Below are positions 3,082-31,286 of a stretch of DNA of 64,000 bases, one piece after another. The notes beneath the pieces are model-generated. The model did not search any database. It was not told the DNA's origin and saw only the letters and a list, made by a program, of their open reading frames with translations. This DNA is from Patescibacteria group bacterium (GTDB taxonomy: Bacteria > Patescibacteriota > Patescibacteriia > Magasanikbacterales > GWA2-37-8). The position numbers were made by a program, and so were the translations under genes. The stretch is from assembly GCA_041649475.1 (NCBI GenBank), contig JBAZNA010000001.1, forward strand, positions 686,594 to 750,593, read 5' to 3'. Each line of letters begins with the position of its first letter. Position 1 is the first letter of the stretch.

Positions 3082-4407
3082 ATGCTGTTAAAGTATAAAA
3101 CATATTTAGCCGCGGTGGTTTTAATTTCCGCTGTAATTTTAGTACCAATGGCGCGGGCCGATGAGATAACCGCCAAAACCCAGGAGCGGGATCAACTGCA
3201 GGCCCAGCTTGATCAAATTGAAGAGCAAATCGCGATTTATGAAAAAGAACTGGCCCAAACAACCACCCAAAAAAATACTCTGGCCAATAAAATAAAAAAA
3301 TTAAAATCACAGCAGGCCGCTTTAAAATTACAAATACAAGAAACCACGCTCAAACTGGCTGAACTGGAAAAAAACTTAACAATCACCAATCAGTCCATCA
3401 GCGCCAAGGCGGCCAAACTAGAATCCTTAAAAATTGAAATCGCCGGCCTTCTGCGCCAGTTGCATTCTGATAATCAAAACGTTTTGACCATGATTATGAC
3501 TGCCCGCAGTTTGGGAGACGCCTACGTGCAAGTTAAAAACTATTTTATGCTCACCCAGGCCTTGAGCCAACTTATGGGACAAACAAAAGACGTTAAGGCA
3601 CAACTGGAAACGCAACGCACCCAGTATGAAGAGCAGCAAACCGACAATGAAAAACTTCTGTCAATAAAATCAATTCAGCAAAATCAATTGGTCACAACCC
3701 TGCAGGAGCAAAATTCACTGTTGCAGGAAACCAAAGGACAGGAAAGTTCTTACCAGGCAATTTTAGCCGATCAAAAAAAACAGGCCGCGGCCATTCGCAA
3801 CCGCATTTACGAACTGTTCAGCATGACCACCCAGATAACCTTCGGCCAGGCGCTTGAGATTGCCAATTGGGCATCAGGACTGACCGGCGTACGTCCGGCG
3901 TTTTTACTCGCGATTTTAACCCAAGAATCAAACTTGGGCAAAAATGTCGGCACCTGCAACCGCCTGGGCGACCCGCCGGAAAAAAGCTGGAAAGTGGTAA
4001 TGAAACCGGAAAGGGATCAGGAACCGTTTAAAAAAATAACAACGGAACTGAATCTTGATATAGATTCCACGCCTGTTTCCTGCCCGATGCATGATGCTAA
4101 AGGCAACCAGGTCGGCTGGGGCGGCGGCATGGGGCCGGCGCAATTCATCCCCTCAACCTGGATGGGCTACAAAGATAAAGTTGCGGCCATGACCGGCAAA
4201 TCACCGGCCAACCCCTGGGATATCAGAGATGCTTTTATTGCCTCGGCCATCAAGCTAAAAGCCGCCGGGGCTGACTCAAAATCCGGAGAGTGGAAAGCGG
4301 CCATGATTTATTTTTCCGGCGGTACCAATTCCCGCTACAGTTTTTACGGCGATAATGTGGTTGCCACCGCCAATAAATACCAAAGCGACATAGACCAACT
4401 TCAATAA
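3082..4407 (+). CDS. Secreted coiled-coil protein with C-terminal lytic-transglycosylase-like (SLT) domain
   Basis: Signal/TM at the N-terminus, a ~250 aa heptad-rich Q/E/K/L region, then LAILTQESNLG...GPAQFIPSTW, which resembles the SLT catalytic E-S and GLMQ-like motifs. A TATAAT lies 11 nt upstream of the ATG. Confidence 0.45.
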   Translation: MLLKYKTYLAAVVLISAVILVPMARADEITAKTQERDQLQAQLDQIEEQIAIYEKELAQTTTQKNTLANKIKKLKSQQAALKLQIQETTLKLAELEKNLTITNQSISAKAAKLESLKIEIAGLLRQLHSDNQNVLTMIMTARSLGDAYVQVKNYFMLTQALSQLMGQTKDVKAQLETQRTQYEEQQTDNEKLLSIKSIQQNQLVTTLQEQNSLLQETKGQESSYQAILADQKKQAAAIRNRIYELFSMTTQITFGQALEIANWASGLTGVRPAFLLAILTQESNLGKNVGTCNRLGDPPEKSWKVVMKPERDQEPFKKITTELNLDIDSTPVSCPMHDAKGNQVGWGGGMGPAQFIPSTWMGYKDKVAAMTGKSPANPWDIRDAFIASAIKLKAAGADSKSGEWKAAMIYFSGGTNSRYSFYGDNVVATANKYQSDIDQLQ

Positions 4408-4408
4408 A

Positions 4409-4984
4409 ATGCCAGATCTACACTCGGATGAACAACTCGTAGCCGCTTTTTTGACCGGCGATGAAGCCGCTCTAAATATTTTAATACAAAGATATACCGC
4501 CCGGGTATATAATTTTGTGGCACAATATATCGGCCACGGGCAGGACGCCGAAGACACCACCCAGGAAACATTCATCAAGGTTTGGAAGGGCCTGCGCCGA
4601 TTTGATACGACAAAAAAATTCAAGCCCTGGCTGTTTCAAATTGCCAAAAATACAGCCATTGACTTTCTTCGCAAACGCAAGCTACCCATATTGACCACTG
4701 TTGTTGATGATGACGAAAACGCCATCAATCCGGTAGATGTGCTGTCGGATCAAACGCCCCTGCCGCTTGAACAGATGGCTGTAGTTGAACGCGCGGCCAT
4801 AATCCAAAAAGCCCTTAATTTACTGCCCAACATATATAGTACGGTGATAAATTTATATTACCTGGAAGAGCTGACGCTCGCGGAAATTGCGGAAGTTCTG
4901 TCAGAATCACTGGACACGATAAAAAGCCGCCACCGCCGCGCTCTCATCAAACTCCGAGAATTGATACCCAAGGGTGAACAATAA
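4409..4984 (+). CDS. RNA polymerase sigma factor, ECF (sigma-70 region 2/4) family
   Basis: 191 aa. Region 2 (YNFVAQYIGHGQDAEDTTQETFIKVWKG) and region 4 HTH (LTLAEIAEVLSESLDTIKSRHRRAL) are present. The start is 2 nt after the stop of the upstream gene. Confidence 0.8.
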   Translation: MPDLHSDEQLVAAFLTGDEAALNILIQRYTARVYNFVAQYIGHGQDAEDTTQETFIKVWKGLRRFDTTKKFKPWLFQIAKNTAIDFLRKRKLPILTTVVDDDENAINPVDVLSDQTPLPLEQMAVVERAAIIQKALNLLPNIYSTVINLYYLEELTLAEIAEVLSESLDTIKSRHRRALIKLRELIPKGEQ

Positions 4985-5022
4985 ATGCACCTAAAATTCA
5001 TTTATTTACGTATTATACGTGT

Positions 5023-5430
5023 ATGACAAACCCATTATTTGAACATATCCAGCTTGATTGCCCAAACGGCTTGGCTGAAAAGATTGTCCAAACAATTGAA
5101 CATAGAAAAATGGTCAACTACTACGCTAAAATTATCATTTTCGGCTTCTTTTCATTAGTGTCTGTTTTTGTGCTCGTAATTGCTTTAAGATCGGAAATTC
5201 CGTATATCATAAACTCCGAAGCCGGCAAACTTGTCTCTTTGCTGTTTTCCGACTCATCCATCATCTTAAAATACTGGCAGCAATACTTCCTGTCTCTCAT
5301 TCAATCCTTGCCGATTGTTTCAATAATTATTGTCGGCATCTCTTTGTGGCTGGTATGCATGTTTGTGTGGATGATGGCACGCGCTTCGCTTGTCCTGATA
5401 CATCATAATAAAATTAAAAATCACGCTTAA
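5023..5430 (+). CDS. Membrane protein, putative anti-sigma factor
   Basis: 135 aa with a short cytoplasmic N-terminus then TM helices, immediately downstream of the ECF sigma. The assignment is by position only. Confidence 0.3.
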   Translation: MTNPLFEHIQLDCPNGLAEKIVQTIEHRKMVNYYAKIIIFGFFSLVSVFVLVIALRSEIPYIINSEAGKLVSLLFSDSSIILKYWQQYFLSLIQSLPIVSIIIVGISLWLVCMFVWMMARASLVLIHHNKIKNHA

Positions 5431-23482: not shown

Positions 23483-24352
23483 TTACAAGATCATGCTTTC
23501 TCTGTCGTTTTCAGCCGATTTCAGGATATAAACATCGCTTTTTCCGTAGGCATCCTCGCCCACAAACTCCGCCTCTTTGTCTATAATCGCCTGCAGGGGT
23601 TTGCAAGCCGGACAGCCGTCGTCGCCGTTCGGGCATTTAAACCGGTTCAGTTGTCTGGCCAGTTTCATCTGTTTGGCGATTTCCAAAATTTTGTTTTGCG
23701 CTTCGTTTAGGTCGGGCAGGGTTTTTTCGGTTAAATTATCGCTGGAAAATAAGTACCAATAACTGGCTTTGGTCACTTTTCGCTTCTGGCAATTGTGCAC
23801 GAGCAAATGGTAAATCGGCAGTTGTAAAGAGTCGGTCTCTTCCTCGTTGCGCCCGGTTTTAAAATCAATAATGTGAACGCTGTCGGTGTCGGGCAAATAT
23901 TCCAGCCAGTCAATTTTCCCGCACAAAATAATATTTTCTTCTTCAGAAAGCCAATACGACGGCAGATCCTGCTGGATTTTTACGGAAAGCGTGGCGAGCG
24001 GGCCCGGACTCCTCATCACCCGGCGAAGCATTTCCTCTCCGCGCTGTTTATAAACATATTCAACCTCGTCGCTTTGGAAGCCGCCTTTTTTGCCGCGAAT
24101 TTTTTCCCAAGCCGTGTCCAGCTTTTCTATTAGCGACTTTGCGAAGCGCTGTTCAGTCGGCAAAACCGATAATGATTCCAAAACCTCATGCACGGCCTGG
24201 CCCAGCGCCAGCGCCGGAGCCATTATTTTTATTTTATGTTTTGTCACCGGATCTTTATAAACATTTTTCAAATAATACGCTTTCGGACAGCGCAAAAAAT
24301 CACTGATTGAAGTGTGTGAAACCCAAACTGCGGTGTATCTGTCCGGAGGCAT
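23483..24352 (-). CDS. PD-(D/E)XK nuclease with Fe-S cluster cysteines (Cas4-like/RecB-family)
   Basis: N-terminal Cys (CPKAYY) plus C-terminal CPNGDDGCPAC cluster. Core motif GKIDWLE...HIIDFKTGR (D...D/E-x-K). No CRISPR array in the window. Confidence 0.55.
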   Translation of the reverse strand: MPPDRYTAVWVSHTSISDFLRCPKAYYLKNVYKDPVTKHKIKIMAPALALGQAVHEVLESLSVLPTEQRFAKSLIEKLDTAWEKIRGKKGGFQSDEVEYVYKQRGEEMLRRVMRSPGPLATLSVKIQQDLPSYWLSEEENIILCGKIDWLEYLPDTDSVHIIDFKTGRNEEETDSLQLPIYHLLVHNCQKRKVTKASYWYLFSSDNLTEKTLPDLNEAQNKILEIAKQMKLARQLNRFKCPNGDDGCPACKPLQAIIDKEAEFVGEDAYGKSDVYILKSAENDRESMIL

Positions 24353-24358
24353 AGTTAT

Positions 24359-24733
24359 TTACGCGTAGGCAGTGCCTGCGTCTTTAATACTTAATGATTC
24401 AAAATAATAAATAAACTTCAGATTGTCTACATTAACACCGTATTTTATCACCAAACTCTTTGGCTCGCCGTTGATTACGGGATTAGCGAACAAATGCTGC
24501 TCGCGCAAGTCCGCGTTTTCCGGCGCATTGTCAATAATCGCAAAATCAAACAACTCATCAACAATTACGCCGGTAAATATTTCCTCAATCTCTTCCACAG
24601 AATCGCTGGTATCAAAATCAAACGGCTGATTTTTTTTAGTAAAAAGTTCTTTGAGCCGAGATTGCAAACCGTCTTTAATAGTTTTTAAAGCGCTTTCTAT
24701 CGCCGCTTCATGCGCTTTTTCGTTTTCGGACAT
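24359..24733 (-). CDS. Hypothetical acidic protein (124 aa)
   Basis: ORF with 6-nt spacing to the nuclease gene; no domain recognised. Confidence 0.35.
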   Translation of the reverse strand: MSENEKAHEAAIESALKTIKDGLQSRLKELFTKKNQPFDFDTSDSVEEIEEIFTGVIVDELFDFAIIDNAPENADLREQHLFANPVINGEPKSLVIKYGVNVDNLKFIYYFESLSIKDAGTAYA

Positions 24734-24739
24734 ATATAT

Positions 24740-25201
24740 TTATTTCTTCATCATTAGTTCTCTGAGCAAATTCGCGTCTTCTTTGCCCAGATATAATAAC
24801 CCATCTGGGTGCAACTCATTTTTATCACCAACTTGAGATAGTGAAGCTGTCCAAATACTTATCCGTGCAAGTTTAAACAAACCCATCAAAGGGCCACTGA
24901 TAGTTTTTATATCTTGGATTTTATCAAATGCTATAGATTTAGATTTTTTTATAAACATGCCCCAATTTATAGTTAAACTTCCCTGATCAAGAAAGAAGGA
25001 AGTAAATTGGAAATCGATAAAAAATCTGATAAAAACAGGGGCCCCAATAATAACCAGTAGAACCACAAAAAATCCGACCCAATACTTCGAAGCAAATAAT
25101 AAGATTGGTACAGTTACTAAAAATAACAACAGAGCTATCTTGACCGCAGCGTACAAAAGCAAAGAGTTTGACATTTTATACGTTTTTTTAAAGTCGTACA
25201 T
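24740..25201 (-). CDS. Membrane protein with bacterial PH (bPH_2/YdbS-like) domain
   Basis: Two N-terminal TM helices then a PH-like region (FIKKSKSIAFDKIQDIKTISGPLMGLF). Confidence 0.45.
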   Translation of the reverse strand: MYDFKKTYKMSNSLLLYAAVKIALLLFLVTVPILLFASKYWVGFFVVLLVIIGAPVFIRFFIDFQFTSFFLDQGSLTINWGMFIKKSKSIAFDKIQDIKTISGPLMGLFKLARISIWTASLSQVGDKNELHPDGLLYLGKEDANLLRELMMKK

Positions 25202-25213
25202 AATATAAATTAG

Positions 25214-25660
25214 TTATCTAAATTTCTTTAATGCGTTTGGTAGGCCCCAAATAACCAAAGCAATGCCGCCGAAGACAACTGATAGCCCCGGGAAGATGCT
25301 AGAAGCGTAGAGTTTCCAGCCCTGCCATTCCATGGAGATCAGCCAATCGCCTTTGATGCCGGAATACACCAAACCGACGCCGGCATACAAAAAGCCTGCT
25401 GCCAGCAGGCAGAAAAGGACGATGACGATGAGTTTAAAAGTGTTGTCGGTGGATGATTGGGGGAGGGTGGGCATATAGGATGGGTTTAAAATTAAGGATA
25501 AAAATAAAATATACGGCAAGAATATCTTACCATAATACACTAATGTTGAGCAATAAAAAAATTTTGCTCGAGGTGGTGGAGTAAGTACGAACCTGTATTG
25601 ACCAAGGTAAATATTCAACTTTTTTTTAAACGCCGCAAATAGTTTTAGCGAGGTGGTCAA
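25214..25660 (-). CDS. Membrane protein (148 aa)
   Basis: Multiple TM helices; no domain recognised. Confidence 0.35.
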   Translation of the reverse strand: MTTSLKLFAAFKKKLNIYLGQYRFVLTPPPRAKFFYCSTLVYYGKIFLPYILFLSLILNPSYMPTLPQSSTDNTFKLIVIVLFCLLAAGFLYAGVGLVYSGIKGDWLISMEWQGWKLYASSIFPGLSVVFGGIALVIWGLPNALKKFR

Positions 25661-26144
25661 TTATCAATAACCAATTAAGTTTGATTAGTAACAATAAAAT
25701 TCCAAATAATATTATGAATCCTATTATAAAAAACCAATTAAATCTATAATTTTGCTTATTTTCTCGATCGTTTTTTTTCACCTGACTTTTATAAAAAATA
25801 AATAGTAACATCAAAAATAAGAGGTAACCGCCATACTTTTTTAAATTATTCATCTGCCCAAAGGCGCTTATAACAACATAGCCAATTAAGCTAAGCAAGA
25901 CAATTGTAAACGGTAACTTTTCCTCTAGTTTTTCGAAGATACCATTCCAGTAGCGTGTACCCCATGGATCGCCTGTCGGTCCGCCCATATCTGGTTTCCC
26001 CTCTGAAGATGTCCCTGCTTGTGCTAAAATACCACCGGAGCTTTCTTCTTGTGGAACTATACCCTTAAAACCACTTTCGCTAATATCAATGCCAGTACCA
26101 CGTTTTTCATCCTCATTGATTCTGTTTGCCGTTCCGTTATTCAT
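25626..26144 (-). CDS. Membrane protein with Gly/Ser-rich N-terminal region (172 aa)
   Basis: G/S/P-rich N-terminus followed by 3 TM. Overlaps ORF 26137..26859 by 8 nt. Confidence 0.35.
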   Translation of the reverse strand: MNNGTANRINEDEKRGTGIDISESGFKGIVPQEESSGGILAQAGTSSEGKPDMGGPTGDPWGTRYWNGIFEKLEEKLPFTIVLLSLIGYVVISAFGQMNNLKKYGGYLLFLMLLFIFYKSQVKKNDRENKQNYRFNWFFIIGFIILFGILLLLIKLNWLLIIDHLAKTICGV

Positions 26145-26859
26145 ATAAATACTTCAAAAAGCCACCATGTATGTGTTCGATCGAATCTATATTGTCTTTG
26201 CATAAGCTTTCCAAATCTTGTAAATTGGTGGTCAACTCTTTATTTTGAAAAAAATCTATTTCGCAGTACGTGCCGCATTCTTTTTTATACTTATCTGCAT
26301 ACACCTGTTTTTTACTAAAAAATCTATTTATCGCTTCTTCGGTTGTTACCGGTCCCATTAGTATATTAAATTTTCCACCATCATATTCGCAGTCGTTAAA
26401 AGAAAAACCGAAATCAATCAGTTTAGCACCTGTGTTTTTTTCGAATGATTCATAATTTTTAAACATTTTGTTTTTAAATGCCGTTTTTAGATTATCCAAG
26501 TTATCTGCGCTATTAAAATTCAATATTGAACTTTTTGTGCCGACACGAATTAAAGTATTGATCGGATATTTATCAAAGGTTTTTATAATTTTAAATAATT
26601 TTTCTGTTTTGTTTTTAAACTCGCCAAAGTCCAATGAGCCATCAATTTGTAAACCGAAATTTTCAATACTAAAAAAAATAAATTCAGTTAAATCTTCATT
26701 TGCGACGTCTATCCTAGCGTCCATTATTTTTATTTTAGTGAAATCCTTATTTTTAGCTATAATAGCATCTGTCAATTGCCCTTTTAAATCCAAGAAAGAG
26801 AACTTCCTAAATTTTAAACGAATCTCTAGGGTATGTTTAATTATTTTAGTATCTGCCAT
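26137..26859 (-). CDS. Hypothetical cytoplasmic protein (240 aa) adjacent to R-M system
   Basis: AT-rich, N/K/F-rich composition; no domain recognised. Contiguous with the R-M genes. Confidence 0.4.
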   Translation of the reverse strand: MADTKIIKHTLEIRLKFRKFSFLDLKGQLTDAIIAKNKDFTKIKIMDARIDVANEDLTEFIFFSIENFGLQIDGSLDFGEFKNKTEKLFKIIKTFDKYPINTLIRVGTKSSILNFNSADNLDNLKTAFKNKMFKNYESFEKNTGAKLIDFGFSFNDCEYDGGKFNILMGPVTTEEAINRFFSKKQVYADKYKKECGTYCEIDFFQNKELTTNLQDLESLCKDNIDSIEHIHGGFLKYLYE

Positions 26860-26884: not shown

Positions 26885-27691
26885 TCACAATATAATAGTT
26901 ACTTTTTCATAAAGTTTTGGTAAACAATTTTGTCTCATTCTAAATTTAGTACCATGATTGTGGCCACTTCTTGCATCAAAATCCACCAAAATGTCCCCGT
27001 CTTCCAACGCTTTTAAAAAGCCTTCAAAGCTGAATTTTTGCAACATCATCACTTTAGAATAGTGATAATATTCTTTTTTGCGTTCTATTTTAACATCCGC
27101 TTGTACATAAAAGCAGTTTAGTAATTTTGTTCCGGCTTTATGTTCAAGATCATCAAAACCCCAGTATGGTTGCGGATCTAATTCACCCAAACCAACACGC
27201 TTTTTAACTGATTGCAGCCATACCTTGTGTCTTGGGTCAACACTTTTTGCTTCAAAAGAAATCAATATCTTTTTTTCTCGTCGGTCAATGACTACCATAA
27301 AACCACGGTCGCTTCGTGATTTGCCATGAATAGTTTGTCTAAAACTCATTTCGTTTTTAGGATATAATTTGTCGGCCTCATCATGAGCCCAGCCGTATTT
27401 TGGTAATAATACCTGTGGCACAAAACGAACTGCGCGTGGTGATGGTTCAGTGTGAAAAAGCGTTGTAAGCGATGTTGAATTTAATCGCTGCGCTTTTAAT
27501 TCCCATTCGGCCGCATTCGGAATTGGTAAATTATTTTCTTTAATGCCTAGCAGGTCTTCTAGCGTATTACCAATTCCGCCATGGTTACCTTTGCGGGCAT
27601 TTGGTATCCAACCCATCCCAGCTATTCGTTTAAATTCCTCAATCAAAATTGGTTTAGTAAAAAGATTTAATGTTTGTTTTGCACGTGGCAT
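26885..27691 (-). CDS. Putative Type II restriction endonuclease (PD-(D/E)XK; MvaI/BcnI-like by context)
   Basis: 268 aa immediately downstream of an m4C/m6A beta-class MTase with a 2-nt gap. Candidate PD-(D/E)XK core VVIDRREKKILISFEAKS. The family assignment is inferred, not verified. Confidence 0.5.
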   Translation of the reverse strand: MPRAKQTLNLFTKPILIEEFKRIAGMGWIPNARKGNHGGIGNTLEDLLGIKENNLPIPNAAEWELKAQRLNSTSLTTLFHTEPSPRAVRFVPQVLLPKYGWAHDEADKLYPKNEMSFRQTIHGKSRSDRGFMVVIDRREKKILISFEAKSVDPRHKVWLQSVKKRVGLGELDPQPYWGFDDLEHKAGTKLLNCFYVQADVKIERKKEYYHYSKVMMLQKFSFEGFLKALEDGDILVDFDARSGHNHGTKFRMRQNCLPKLYEKVTIIL

Positions 27692-27693
27692 AT

Positions 27694-28467
27694 TTAGAAG
27701 TTTAATTTTATTTGGGATTTATGTTTTTTTATACGTTCTTTTGCCATAGCACAATATTGTGGTGATATATCAATTCCGATGTAATTTCTGTTAAAGTTTA
27801 TAGCGGATATTGCGGTTGTGCCCGAACCCATAAAAGGGTCCAAAATAACTTTTGCACTGGTAGATGTGACAATTCTGTCAATCAAATCAACTGGAAAAGC
27901 GGCGGGGTGTTCATTTTTCATCTCTTGGGTAAATTCCCATACATCGCCGTACCCATTCGCTTTGGGCACTAACTTAAATTTTGGTTTAGCAATTAAATAA
28001 ATCACTTCATATGTTGGCACAAAATAACCAGCATTAAAATTAAAACCACCTTTCCGTCTCCAAATGATTATTTGCCGAACTGGAAAACCGGAAATAATAT
28101 CTTGTCTGTCCTGTAATTTTCCGGCTTGTACTCGCCATTTGTGATTATAAAAAATTGCACCGTCTTCCGGGATGATCCTCATCATCTCATTTAGGCAATC
28201 TCGCTGCCACTTAACATAATCTTCATGTGGCATGCAATCATTGTGATGACTATATCCTTTTTGTAGGGCCGCATTTGCCCATTTGCCACCTCGCCCGTCT
28301 TTCATGCCATTACCAGTTGAATTTTTTAAATTATACGGGGGCGATGTTACAACTAAATCAACACTTCCGTCAGGAATTTGCTTTAGTATCTGAACAGTGT
28401 CGCCACAAATAATTTTATTAACAAAACTATCGAGTTGCTTCATAAACCCTATATTATAAACTAGCAA
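27694..28467 (-). CDS. DNA methyltransferase, beta-class (N4-cytosine or N6-adenine), SPPY type
   Basis: Motif IV TSPPY precedes the C-terminal motif I DPFMGSGTT. This is the permuted beta-class order typical of m4C MTases such as M.MvaI/M.BcnI. Confidence 0.8.
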   Translation of the reverse strand: MLVYNIGFMKQLDSFVNKIICGDTVQILKQIPDGSVDLVVTSPPYNLKNSTGNGMKDGRGGKWANAALQKGYSHHNDCMPHEDYVKWQRDCLNEMMRIIPEDGAIFYNHKWRVQAGKLQDRQDIISGFPVRQIIIWRRKGGFNFNAGYFVPTYEVIYLIAKPKFKLVPKANGYGDVWEFTQEMKNEHPAAFPVDLIDRIVTSTSAKVILDPFMGSGTTAISAINFNRNYIGIDISPQYCAMAKERIKKHKSQIKLNF

Positions 28468-28508
28468 GTATATTTTACCCTTTTTCTTTTGAGTTTACAA
28501 ACACAAAA

Positions 28509-28531
28509 CTCACCCCTTTGCAAGGGGTGAG
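28509..28531 (-). terminator. Rho-independent terminator of HNH gene (hairpin ctcaccccttTGCAaggggtgag)
   Basis: Perfect 10-bp stem with 4-nt loop, followed on the minus strand by TTTTGTGTTTG. Confidence 0.55.
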
Positions 28532-28555
28532 TAGTAATTTGAAAAAACGTTCCAT

Positions 28556-29035
28556 TTAGGCCAACCGGCCGTGTTTTTCTAAAAAATACACAGAACTGCC
28601 TTCTTTTTCATGACAGTATTTACAGAGCACCTCACCATTTTCCACATCCCACAACTCAAAACAATTTATAGCTTCAGGGACTGAAGTAATGCGATTACTT
28701 CTTACAATCTGACACAATGTTTTTTTGTGATGCACCTCAAGAGCATACTTGCACCCGCATCTCTGACATCTATAACCTGCTCTAAATAAAACTTGCACTC
28801 TCCATCTATAATATTCAAAAGATCTTTGCAGTTCGCTTCTAAATAACTTATACTGTCCAAAATCAAAACCGGTATAAGAAAAAATGTTATATACCTTACA
28901 ACTTGGGCTCTGCTTTTGGTCTTTGTGATCAGTACGAGAATGCTTGATTATTACATACAATAACCAACAAAGCATAGCCAGACCGATTAAATCACCGAGC
29001 GCGGATGTGTTCTCCATAGACCCGTACCCTGACAT
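28556..29035 (-). CDS. HNH endonuclease with N-terminal membrane anchor
   Basis: HNH-like Cys/His motif CQRCG...LEVHH...CKYCH; hydrophobic N-terminal segment. Confidence 0.6.
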   Translation of the reverse strand: MSGYGSMENTSALGDLIGLAMLCWLLYVIIKHSRTDHKDQKQSPSCKVYNIFSYTGFDFGQYKLFRSELQRSFEYYRWRVQVLFRAGYRCQRCGCKYALEVHHKKTLCQIVRSNRITSVPEAINCFELWDVENGEVLCKYCHEKEGSSVYFLEKHGRLA

Positions 29036-30155: not shown

Positions 30156-30617
30156 TTAATTTATATCTCCTCTGATATCAACCGAGTAAAAATATGCTTC
30201 AACCCCTTTTACCTCCGACTCCTTATTATTATTTTTAAACTGCTTAATAAAATCTTTAGTAGATTCTATCCCTTGTTTATCAATAAAGTACGTAACCTTG
30301 ATTGGCACCAGCATACTTGAAATCATGGTCTTTTCAGAAACCGTCACCCAAACCAAATTTTTATTATCCCTCAAATCTTCATCCAAAGGTATCTCCTGAT
30401 GATCGGCTAAATAGTCCTCGTGATCCTGATAAATAAACACGCTTTTGACTTTCTCCGAAACCTCCTCAATATTTTCAAAATTTTGCAGATCAGCCACGGG
30501 TTTGCCAAATCTTAAAGCTTCATGAATGGCCTGCGCGACCATCTCTTTTTCTAATTCAACCTGCGTGGTCTTGTCCTCCAGGTCTATTACCGGTATGCGG
30601 TTATCTAAATTTTCCAT
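30156..30617 (-). CDS. Hypothetical acidic protein (153 aa)
   Basis: ORF with no recognised domain. Confidence 0.35.
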   Translation of the reverse strand: MENLDNRIPVIDLEDKTTQVELEKEMVAQAIHEALRFGKPVADLQNFENIEEVSEKVKSVFIYQDHEDYLADHQEIPLDEDLRDNKNLVWVTVSEKTMISSMLVPIKVTYFIDKQGIESTKDFIKQFKNNNKESEVKGVEAYFYSVDIRGDIN

Positions 30618-30742: not shown

Positions 30743-31051
30743 ATGACCAAAAACGGCACCGCAAACGGCGTGATCACGTTCGGCCAGTTGCAGGCGAAGT
30801 TCATGGAGGTCTTTCCGTCATACCTCAAGGGCCTGGAGGAATACCCCGCGGAGCTCCGCCATAGAATCGCCAAGCTCTGGCTGGACATAGAGGAGATGGC
30901 GTACGAGCGGCTGCGGCACTTTTCCGACGCCTTTCAGCTCCAGGACGTGGAGGTGCCGGTGGGCGTGACGGGTCGCTTCTGCGAGGAGATGGAACAGCTC
31001 CAGCAGGAGTTGAAGTCGGCTCACGACCGGCAGCACGGCGGGCACATCTAG
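30743..31051 (+). CDS. Hypothetical protein (102 aa) in GC-rich cassette
   Basis: GC-rich ORF with a consensus promoter and strong RBS, followed by a bidirectional terminator. No domain recognised. Confidence 0.5.
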   Translation: MTKNGTANGVITFGQLQAKFMEVFPSYLKGLEEYPAELRHRIAKLWLDIEEMAYERLRHFSDAFQLQDVEVPVGVTGRFCEEMEQLQQELKSAHDRQHGGHI

Positions 31052-31096
31052 CGCCGCTGCCCTACAGGTCAACAACGGTCATGTCCAGAATCAAAA

Positions 31097-31134
31097 AGCC
31101 GGTAGGCCTTCGCGCCACCGGCTCATTTTTTTTT
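31097..31134. terminator. Bidirectional rho-independent terminator (agccggt...accggct followed by T9)
   Basis: 7-bp GC-rich stem with a 13-nt loop. A-run upstream and T-run downstream. Confidence 0.6.
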
Positions 31135-31286
31135 AAAAATTATTTTTAGTCACCCTGCGGGAGGGAAAGACCGGCTCCTTTGGTAAAGACGGTCCGCCTG
31201 AGGCAGAAAAGGAGCGAGGTCTGTTCCACAAGGGCAAGATATATATACTGTATAAGTATGAGTTAAACCTGTCAAGAGGGCATTGA

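Follow-up and report, generated by a model that had tools for sequence, protein, structure and literature searches.

The RexA/RexB system of phage lambda is encoded by two co-transcribed genes, and in it a sensor activates a membrane effector. Here, a gene pair for which we propose the same logic is described from a 64,000-nucleotide (nt) stretch of DNA of a Patescibacteria group bacterium (contig JBAZNA010000001.1). This whole stretch is called the window, and coordinates given without a locus label are positions in it; labels such as L006 denote homologous loci on other contigs. The pair lies on the minus strand and its members were named X and Y for this work. X (26137-26859) is an open reading frame (ORF) of 240 amino acids (aa) that encodes a cytosolic protein of an unnamed family, and Y (25626-26144) is a 172-aa ORF that encodes a membrane protein with about three transmembrane (TM) helices. 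In the window, X-Y follows a Type II restriction-modification (R-M) pair made up of a DNA methyltransferase (MTase) gene and a restriction endonuclease (REase) gene.

The likeness to RexA/RexB is one of layout: in both, a gene for a cytosolic protein of about 240-280 aa is followed by a gene for a multi-TM protein of about 145-170 aa. In contrast, X-Y has no sequence or fold similarity to the Rex proteins (PADLOC, PHROG and Pfam), and no RexA chain was found among the 50 Foldseek matches listed from the PDB. Rex is prophage-borne, whereas X-Y is chromosomal or embedded in R-M operons of uncultured bacteria. Y also differs in combining its approximately three TM helices with a long N-terminal tail that is predicted to be disordered.

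PrrC and PARIS are documented examples of guardian genes linked to R-M systems (PMC12707154). PrrC is an accessory gene inside the EcoprrI Type Ic R-M operon, is co-expressed with it, and acts as a back-up when restriction is defeated, which is the role that we propose for X-Y. X-Y is embedded in the way of a PrrC-type guardian since it is co-oriented within an R-M operon, in the order mod-X-Y-res at several loci and MTase-REase-X-Y (M-R-X-Y) in the window. However, PrrC is a single ABC-ATPase/nuclease protein of Type I loci, while X-Y is a membrane-directed pair of proteins found mainly with Type III systems and also with Type II and other systems. No ABC-ATPase or anticodon-nuclease domain was found in X or Y with Pfam and NCBIfam.

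Among the library families, TIGR04255 alone matched relatives of X repeatedly, though weakly. Its proteins are also about 250 aa long, and distant members of the X family share an N-terminal E-x-R-(F/Y)-K-P strand motif with it. Matches were seen in 4 of 61 and 9 of 82 X relatives, with a best E-value of 4e-8. In contrast, the X of the window did not match at E<=1 and falls short of the NCBIfam cut-off of 30 bits, and 130 of the 143 relatives likewise did not match. TIGR04255 is itself a "sporadically distributed" family of no known function, and no mention of it was found in the literature searched. Judging from these scores, X and TIGR04255 would share a distant superfamily link at most. The X-Y family is absent from the domain and defence libraries and from the literature searched, and its proteins appear to be new.

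X and Y are conserved together. We looked at 21 distinct X loci, the window included, of which 18 had sequence downstream of X and 18 had upstream context. In all 18 with downstream sequence, X is followed by a small ORF on the same strand. These ORFs encode 115-202 aa with at least one hydrophobic helix, as called by Kyte-Doolittle hydropathy, and are spaced -41 to +27 nt from X; in the closer loci, they are clearly homologous to Y. Two loci whose X is 75% identical to that of the window (L006 and L012) match the window over 26866-25671 only, which is X-Y and nothing else. Since the homology is confined to the two genes, they must travel together as one discrete cassette. X-Y is thus a conserved mobile two-gene module.

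The pair sits mostly beside R-M genes. In 13 of the 18 loci with upstream context (a plain count), the gene immediately before X is one for a DNA MTase, another R-M protein or Vsr, and these 13 loci span about six unrelated R-M types. A preliminary description of the region had held that homologs found ubiquitously in non-defence contexts would speak against a role in defence; with 13 of 18 loci linked to R-M, this is not the situation of X-Y. The commonest arrangement is an insertion into a Type III operon. Seven complete loci (L007, L010, L011, L015, L016, L020 and L026) have the order mod, X, Y, res, and in two others (L013 and L018) the contig ends after mod and X. The identities of the Type III genes rest on Pfam (N6_N4_Mtase, ResIII and RE_endonuc) and tblastn. 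The junctions are mostly gaps of 0-5 nt or overlaps, with the exceptions of L011 and L016, where Y and res are about 130 nt and 22 nt apart, and L020, where two small ORFs intervene. L011 represents a separate lineage, with Mod and Res only about 25-30% identical to those of the other Type III loci. Elsewhere, X-Y lies behind an Eco57I-type MTase (L017), a Vsr gene (L019), and an MTase-Mrr fusion with DUF3800 (L028). Nothing relevant to genes between mod and res was found in the literature searched. The additional ATPase that a paper on Type III systems describes lies on the 5' side of mod, unlike X-Y (PMC8259958).

The surroundings of the pair in the other loci are mostly of a mobile-element or defence-like kind. 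A serine recombinase with SNase and helix-turn-helix (HTH) genes lies beside X-Y in L002, an integrase-like ORF with excisionase-like and Rep-like ORFs in L008 (by sequence motifs, not Pfam), Replic_Relax in L025, and a phage integrase in L030. In L027, an HTH gene overlaps a 353-aa RVT_1 reverse transcriptase, retron-like or abortive infection (Abi)-like, at 3754-5077 of that contig, 1.1 kb downstream of a distant X-Y. The preliminary description had seen the context as typical of defence islands. That idea fits X-Y, whose context elsewhere is overwhelmingly R-M or mobile elements, but was not supported for the three genes downstream of Y or for the nuclease beyond them.

A few further observations concern these neighbourhoods. 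Upstream of X in L027 is a 430-aa ORF that by eye resembles a PD-(D/E)XK/DUF2779-type nuclease. In L011 (4336-12703), a 351-aa ORF, RhuM-like by eye, and a MarR-like regulator flank the operon upstream, and a 198-aa protein that is GIY-YIG/T5orf172-like by eye lies downstream; this neighbourhood looks like a dense defence island. The two ORFs between Y and res in L020 (3895-4589) encode 76 aa and 117 aa, the latter with a TM helix, so this Type III lineage seems able to take up more genes between mod and res. The carriers of X-Y are labelled Gammaproteobacteria or Nevskiaceae (L008, L009 and L010) and Patescibacteria (the window and L011), so either the family spans phyla or the labels are unreliable.

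Divergence within the Type III lineage is much greater for X and Y than for the restriction subunit. Among L007, L010, L015, L016, L020 and L026, identity is 27-52% for X and 22-56% for Y, compared to 62-80% for the first 423 residues of Res. This suggests that the embedded pair may be under diversifying or relaxed selection.

X belongs to a sizable family. With clustering at 50% identity, a full profile search reached 280 clusters at E<=1e-3, of which 124 had E<=1e-10, and a word-indexed search gave 8 homologues. Nearly all members are 230-250 aa long, and the 10 clusters that were checked were found in metagenomes only and were mostly singletons. Besides the 61 members scanned with Pfam, PADLOC and PHROG, ten distant members also had no Pfam match. 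The N-terminal extensions on three relatives (P0018, P0078 and P0145) were considered as fusions but look like artefacts of ORF calling.

Structure prediction, which had been suggested in the preliminary description, gave a confident fold for X. The AlphaFold2 model built from 61 sequences had a predicted local distance difference test score (pLDDT) of 95 and a predicted TM-score (pTM) of 0.91, and a model built from nine sequences had the same topology. The first half of the model runs strand, helix, four strands, helix, which is the repeat order of the TBP type, and the second half repeats it more loosely and closes with a long helix. As modelled, X is a pseudo-duplicated alpha+beta sheet. 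A fold search against BFVD returned unnamed viral proteins with TM-scores of at most 0.56, and sequence-profile searches of the PDB with X returned nothing meaningful.

Across 144 sequences, X has a set of near-invariant polar residues, E12 (99%), R14 (92%), D24 (95%), R105 (99%), D149 (98%) and D202 (99%), along with the conserved glycines G27, G69, G107 and G169. The near-invariant polar residues fall on beta-strands. In strand 1 (L11-E12-I13-R14-L15-K16), E12, R14 and K16 face away from the hydrophobic residues, and in strand 1' R105 and K109 are likewise opposite the hydrophobic face. We infer from this pattern a charged patch on the open face of the sheet, which may be suited to a phosphate-bearing ligand or nucleic acid.

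At its N-terminus, Y carries a variable polar tail about 70 aa long, followed by an amphipathic segment and then TM1, TM2 and TM3. The tail is predicted to be cytosolic and disordered. TM1 is the conserved part (PFT..LLS.IGYvvIsaFGqM), and in it G88 and Y89 are invariant. A Pfam scan of 12 members assigned no family to Y. DUF4181 was considered, but it matched 1 of the 12 members, below the cut-off, and was judged a chance match. In the preliminary description, the membrane proteins and a cytosolic partner had been thought to form a sensor and pore. Cytosolic X and membrane Y, as a conserved pair, fit this idea; it was not supported for the other membrane proteins of the region.

In the window, the pair appears to be part of a longer transcription unit. 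The REase (26885-27691, minus strand) is of the MvaI/BcnI family (Pfam MvaI_BcnI, 2.4e-68, 231 bits; PADLOC REase_II, 2.3e-83), and its neighbour (27694-28467, minus strand) is an N4/N6 DNA MTase (Pfam N6_N4_Mtase, 2.6e-40, 139 bits; PADLOC MTase_II, 2.1e-118). The REase family domain together with the neighbouring DNA MTase identifies a Type II R-M system of the MvaI/BcnI kind. A sigma-70-like consensus match (TTGTAA-17-TAAAAT, 28472-28500, minus strand) lies just upstream of the MTase start and is the proposed start of the operon. Its proposed end is a terminator-like hairpin in the spacer after Y (25512-25534, minus strand), a 10-pair stem followed by a T-rich tail. A low-GC operon of MTase, MvaI/BcnI REase, X and Y would therefore run from about 28500 to 25512, with X-Y as its 3' half. 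Another terminator-like hairpin (28508-28532, minus strand), with a GC-rich 11-pair stem, sets the next gene upstream, which encodes an HNH endonuclease, apart from M-R-X-Y. The GC content is 0.25-0.31 over X and 0.36-0.40 over the R-M genes, compared to about 0.43 for the window, so the AT-rich composition noted in the preliminary description was borne out. The start of Y overlaps the stop of X by 8 nt, an overlap that had also been reported correctly, and the two genes are translationally coupled.

Taking these data together, the account that we favor is that X-Y is an anti-phage accessory, a sensor with a membrane effector that follows a RexA/RexB-like logic and forms a second layer of defence beside R-M. 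We hold it tentatively and put it at slightly less than an even chance. In this model, the charged patch of X (E12, R14, R105, D149 and D202) would bind a nucleic-acid or nucleotide cue, or process it, when foreign DNA has escaped restriction and given rise to this cue. X would then release or activate Y. Y would oligomerise in the membrane and collapse membrane integrity or potential, and the infection would be aborted. Transcribed together with R-M, X-Y would serve as a second line of defence, a genomic logic like that of PrrC in EcoprrI.

Several observations weigh against this account. There was no Pfam, PADLOC or PHROG family across 61 X members and no homology to a characterised defence protein. 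In Foldseek searches of the PDB, the confident model of X met no close solved counterpart, only topological look-alikes with TM-scores of at most 0.38 (AdoMetDC, RepD, McsB/arginine kinase and TBP). Because the fold search gave look-alikes only, the sensing role of X is a guess, and its near-invariant E/R/D set could equally mark an enzyme. No X member was found in sequenced phages and plasmids, either by tblastn of two X members or in a scan of viral contigs, which leaves the inference without a cultured system as an anchor. Of the 13 R-M-linked loci, 8 come from a single Type III lineage and so do not count as independent. R-M genes are missing from the vicinity in the other 5 of the 18 loci, so the pair is not strictly dependent on R-M. 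Finally, the promoter-like site and terminator-like hairpin that bracket M-R-X-Y are consensus matches only, and promoter-like matches in the region were not above the shuffled expectation.

A more far-reaching version of the anti-phage account is somewhat unlikely to hold in full. It states that X-Y is a phage defence system not described before and that R-M operons of at least five unrelated classes have repeatedly acquired it, in Type III systems by insertion between mod and res. X would then be the founding characterised member of a TIGR04255-like superfamily, an enzyme or sensor of a new kind that is built on a pseudo-duplicated beta-sheet and carries an E/R/R/D/D site. It would respond to a nucleic-acid or nucleotide sign of failed restriction and trigger a small pore-forming membrane protein. 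If X-Y is defensive, the few systems wired into R-M operons, such as PrrC and the PARIS-like guardians, would gain a new protein family. The pair would be the first known embedded partner for Type III R-M systems, would provide a function for the orphan TIGR04255-like superfamily, and would point to a layer of defence in Patescibacteria and in other lineages without cultured members, for which few systems have been characterised.

Another possible explanation is that X-Y is an addiction cassette in the style of toxin-antitoxin (TA) systems, with Y as a membrane toxin and X as its upstream, coupled neutraliser. Such a cassette would stabilise R-M cassettes, integrative elements and plasmids without sensing phage. 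The close coupling of the genes, 8 nt of overlap in the window and -41 to +27 nt elsewhere, fits this explanation, as do the presence of the pair on integrase, recombinase or plasmid-like elements and its movement as a discrete two-gene unit. However, X is large (230-250 aa), has enzyme-like invariant polar residues, and lacks a DNA-binding antitoxin fold. No toxin or antitoxin family was matched with Pfam in 61 X and 12 Y members beyond singleton matches at chance level, such as SocA_Panacea in 2 of the 61 X members (E=0.055). The position between mod and res in one operon would also be unusual for a TA pair. We consider an addiction cassette unlikely, and it should be noted that TA and abortive-infection roles are not mutually exclusive.

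X-Y could also be non-defence cargo, with a role in envelope stress, transport or signalling, that lies beside R-M genes through shared variable, transferred regions. Some loci do lack defence genes. In L032, the neighbours are PspC/LiaF-like and ATP-grasp genes with no obvious defence genes among them, and L006 has a P-type ATPase as a neighbour. Co-residence alone hardly explains, however, why the pair is inserted in Type III operons at gaps of mostly 0-5 nt and was kept while Res diverged to 62%, or why the association recurs with unrelated R-M types. We consider cargo of this kind unlikely as well.

The possibility that X-Y is an integral accessory of R-M itself fared worse. The pair could tether the R-M complex to the membrane where foreign DNA enters, or time restriction during establishment. 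X-Y always lies downstream of the MTase in the same orientation, and a Type III res must be transcribed through it. Against this, the cassette occurs with about six mechanistically unrelated R-M types and also without any R-M, and the much faster divergence of X and Y compared to Res argues against a tight structural partnership. This explanation seems quite improbable.

The preliminary description had grouped X and Y with the next three genes as one block. All five ORFs exist and are co-directional on the minus strand, and the gaps of 6 and 12 nt between them are real. Gene 3 had been called as a 148-aa ORF counted from a TTG (25214-25660, minus strand). Gene 4 (24740-25201, minus strand) encodes a 153-aa YdbS-like membrane protein with a bacterial PH (bPH) domain, and gene 5 (24359-24733, minus strand) encodes an acidic orphan protein of 124 aa with an isoelectric point of 4.4. 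As had been noted, no Pfam domain other than bPH_2 passes its cut-off in the five proteins (34.9 bits compared to 22; 1.9e-8), and NCBIfam, PADLOC and PHROGs recognised no family in any of them. Gene 4 resembles the YdbS/YdbT-type bPH_2 proteins in having N-terminal hydrophobic helices followed by the bacterial PH domain, but differs from them in being a lone strain-specific insertion without a close homologue.

A near relative with about 85% nucleotide identity to the window (contigs L021-L024) allowed the block to be taken apart. Its gene order is an 86-aa TM protein, the acidic protein, proteins of 72 aa and 155 aa, and a PD-(D/E)XK nuclease. Gene 3 is 86% identical in amino acids to its L021 counterpart over exactly 86 aa, and nucleotide homology covers 25486-25214, starting about 12-35 nt upstream of an ATG at 25474 (BLAST). 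Since homology sets in near this ATG, gene 3 is in truth an 86-aa protein with two hydrophobic TM helices (25214-25474, minus strand). The overlap of about 35 nt with Y that had been reported is therefore an artefact of ORF calling; instead, a 151-nt spacer separates the two genes, and the homology of the relative begins just downstream of the hairpin at 25534-25512. The bPH gene represents a clean indel of about 455 nt: L021 and L022 have no such gene between those for the 86-aa and acidic proteins. In L022, genes of 54 aa and 210 aa lie upstream of the 86-aa gene, and R-M and X-Y are absent there. Among 5.8 billion proteins, the acidic protein found two sequences, itself and one relative with 84% identity, and the bPH protein found no close homologue besides itself. 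Homologues of genes 3-5 are absent from all 20 other X-Y loci. The relative carries its 72-aa and Cys-rich 155-aa genes between the acidic gene and the nuclease; the window has instead the bPH gene, which is placed between the genes for the 86-aa and acidic proteins.

By this comparison, the five-gene block is a mosaic of unrelated genes and not one unit. The bPH gene is an independent, strain-specific insertion of a single gene with no demonstrated tie to X-Y. The 86-aa TM protein, the acidic protein and the nuclease are, on the same evidence, lineage-conserved neighbours outside the X-Y module, the acidic protein being a lineage-restricted orphan that travels with the nuclease. Genes 3-5 are unrelated neighbours in a spot of high small-gene turnover. 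Over the segment from 17.6 to 63.8 kb, the genes are nearly all on the minus strand and lie -11 to +60 nt apart, so that close packing by itself is no sign of an operon here. In streamlined genomes, tight packing is no evidence for an operon, and comparison with a near relative split this block into four independent pieces. Although the five genes are co-directional and closely spaced and two of the added ones encode membrane proteins like Y (gene 3 and the bPH protein), a single novel defence operon of all five is highly improbable given a relative with no bPH gene and with other genes upstream, the 20 X-Y loci without genes 3-5, the spacer with its terminator-like hairpin, and tight packing as the norm of this genome. 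Co-inheritance of the whole block is likewise contradicted by L006 and L012. What co-occurs is X with Y, in 18 of 18 loci, while the five genes together were seen in none of the 20 other loci and not in the relative.

The nuclease downstream of the block (23483-24352, minus strand) had been described as Cas4-like. It matches Pfam PDDEXK_1 (3.3e-22, 80 bits), but scored only 35.8 bits with the Cas4 model TIGR00372 compared to the cut-off of 65 bits, and Tandem Repeats Finder detected no CRISPR-like array in the whole 64-kb window. It is therefore a generic RecB/Cas4-like nuclease. Since it is 86.5% identical in amino acids in the relative, it is a resident gene and not island cargo. Nuclease genes do flank the block, the PD-(D/E)XK gene on one side and the MvaI/BcnI REase with its MTase on the other. 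The impression of a block sandwiched between nucleases is coincidental on this side, the gene being conserved in the relative where R-M and X-Y are absent.

Some features elsewhere in the window were also noted. No convincing island-flanking repeats were found around the locus. The HNH endonuclease gene upstream of the MTase (28556-29035, minus strand) has a low GC content and lies at the far edge of the low-GC island. Its product has an N-terminal TM helix, and a hydrophobic helix at this position is unusual for HNH proteins. A plus-strand ORF of 102 aa (30743-31051) has a strong Shine-Dalgarno sequence (AAGGAGAGGAC-ATG) and about 57% GC compared to 43% for the genome, and is followed by a hairpin and T-run terminator at about 31090-31135 on the plus strand. 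A non-coding RNA was considered for this high-GC segment (30.7-31.05 kb) and was ruled out by the ORF with its Shine-Dalgarno sequence and terminator and by the lack of an Rfam match. The ORF looks like a foreign small gene. Lastly, an acidic 153-aa ORF with a GC content of 0.31-0.38 and no PHROG family (30156-30617, minus strand) sits between a membrane protein that is TspO-like by eye and a tRNA-Thr gene.

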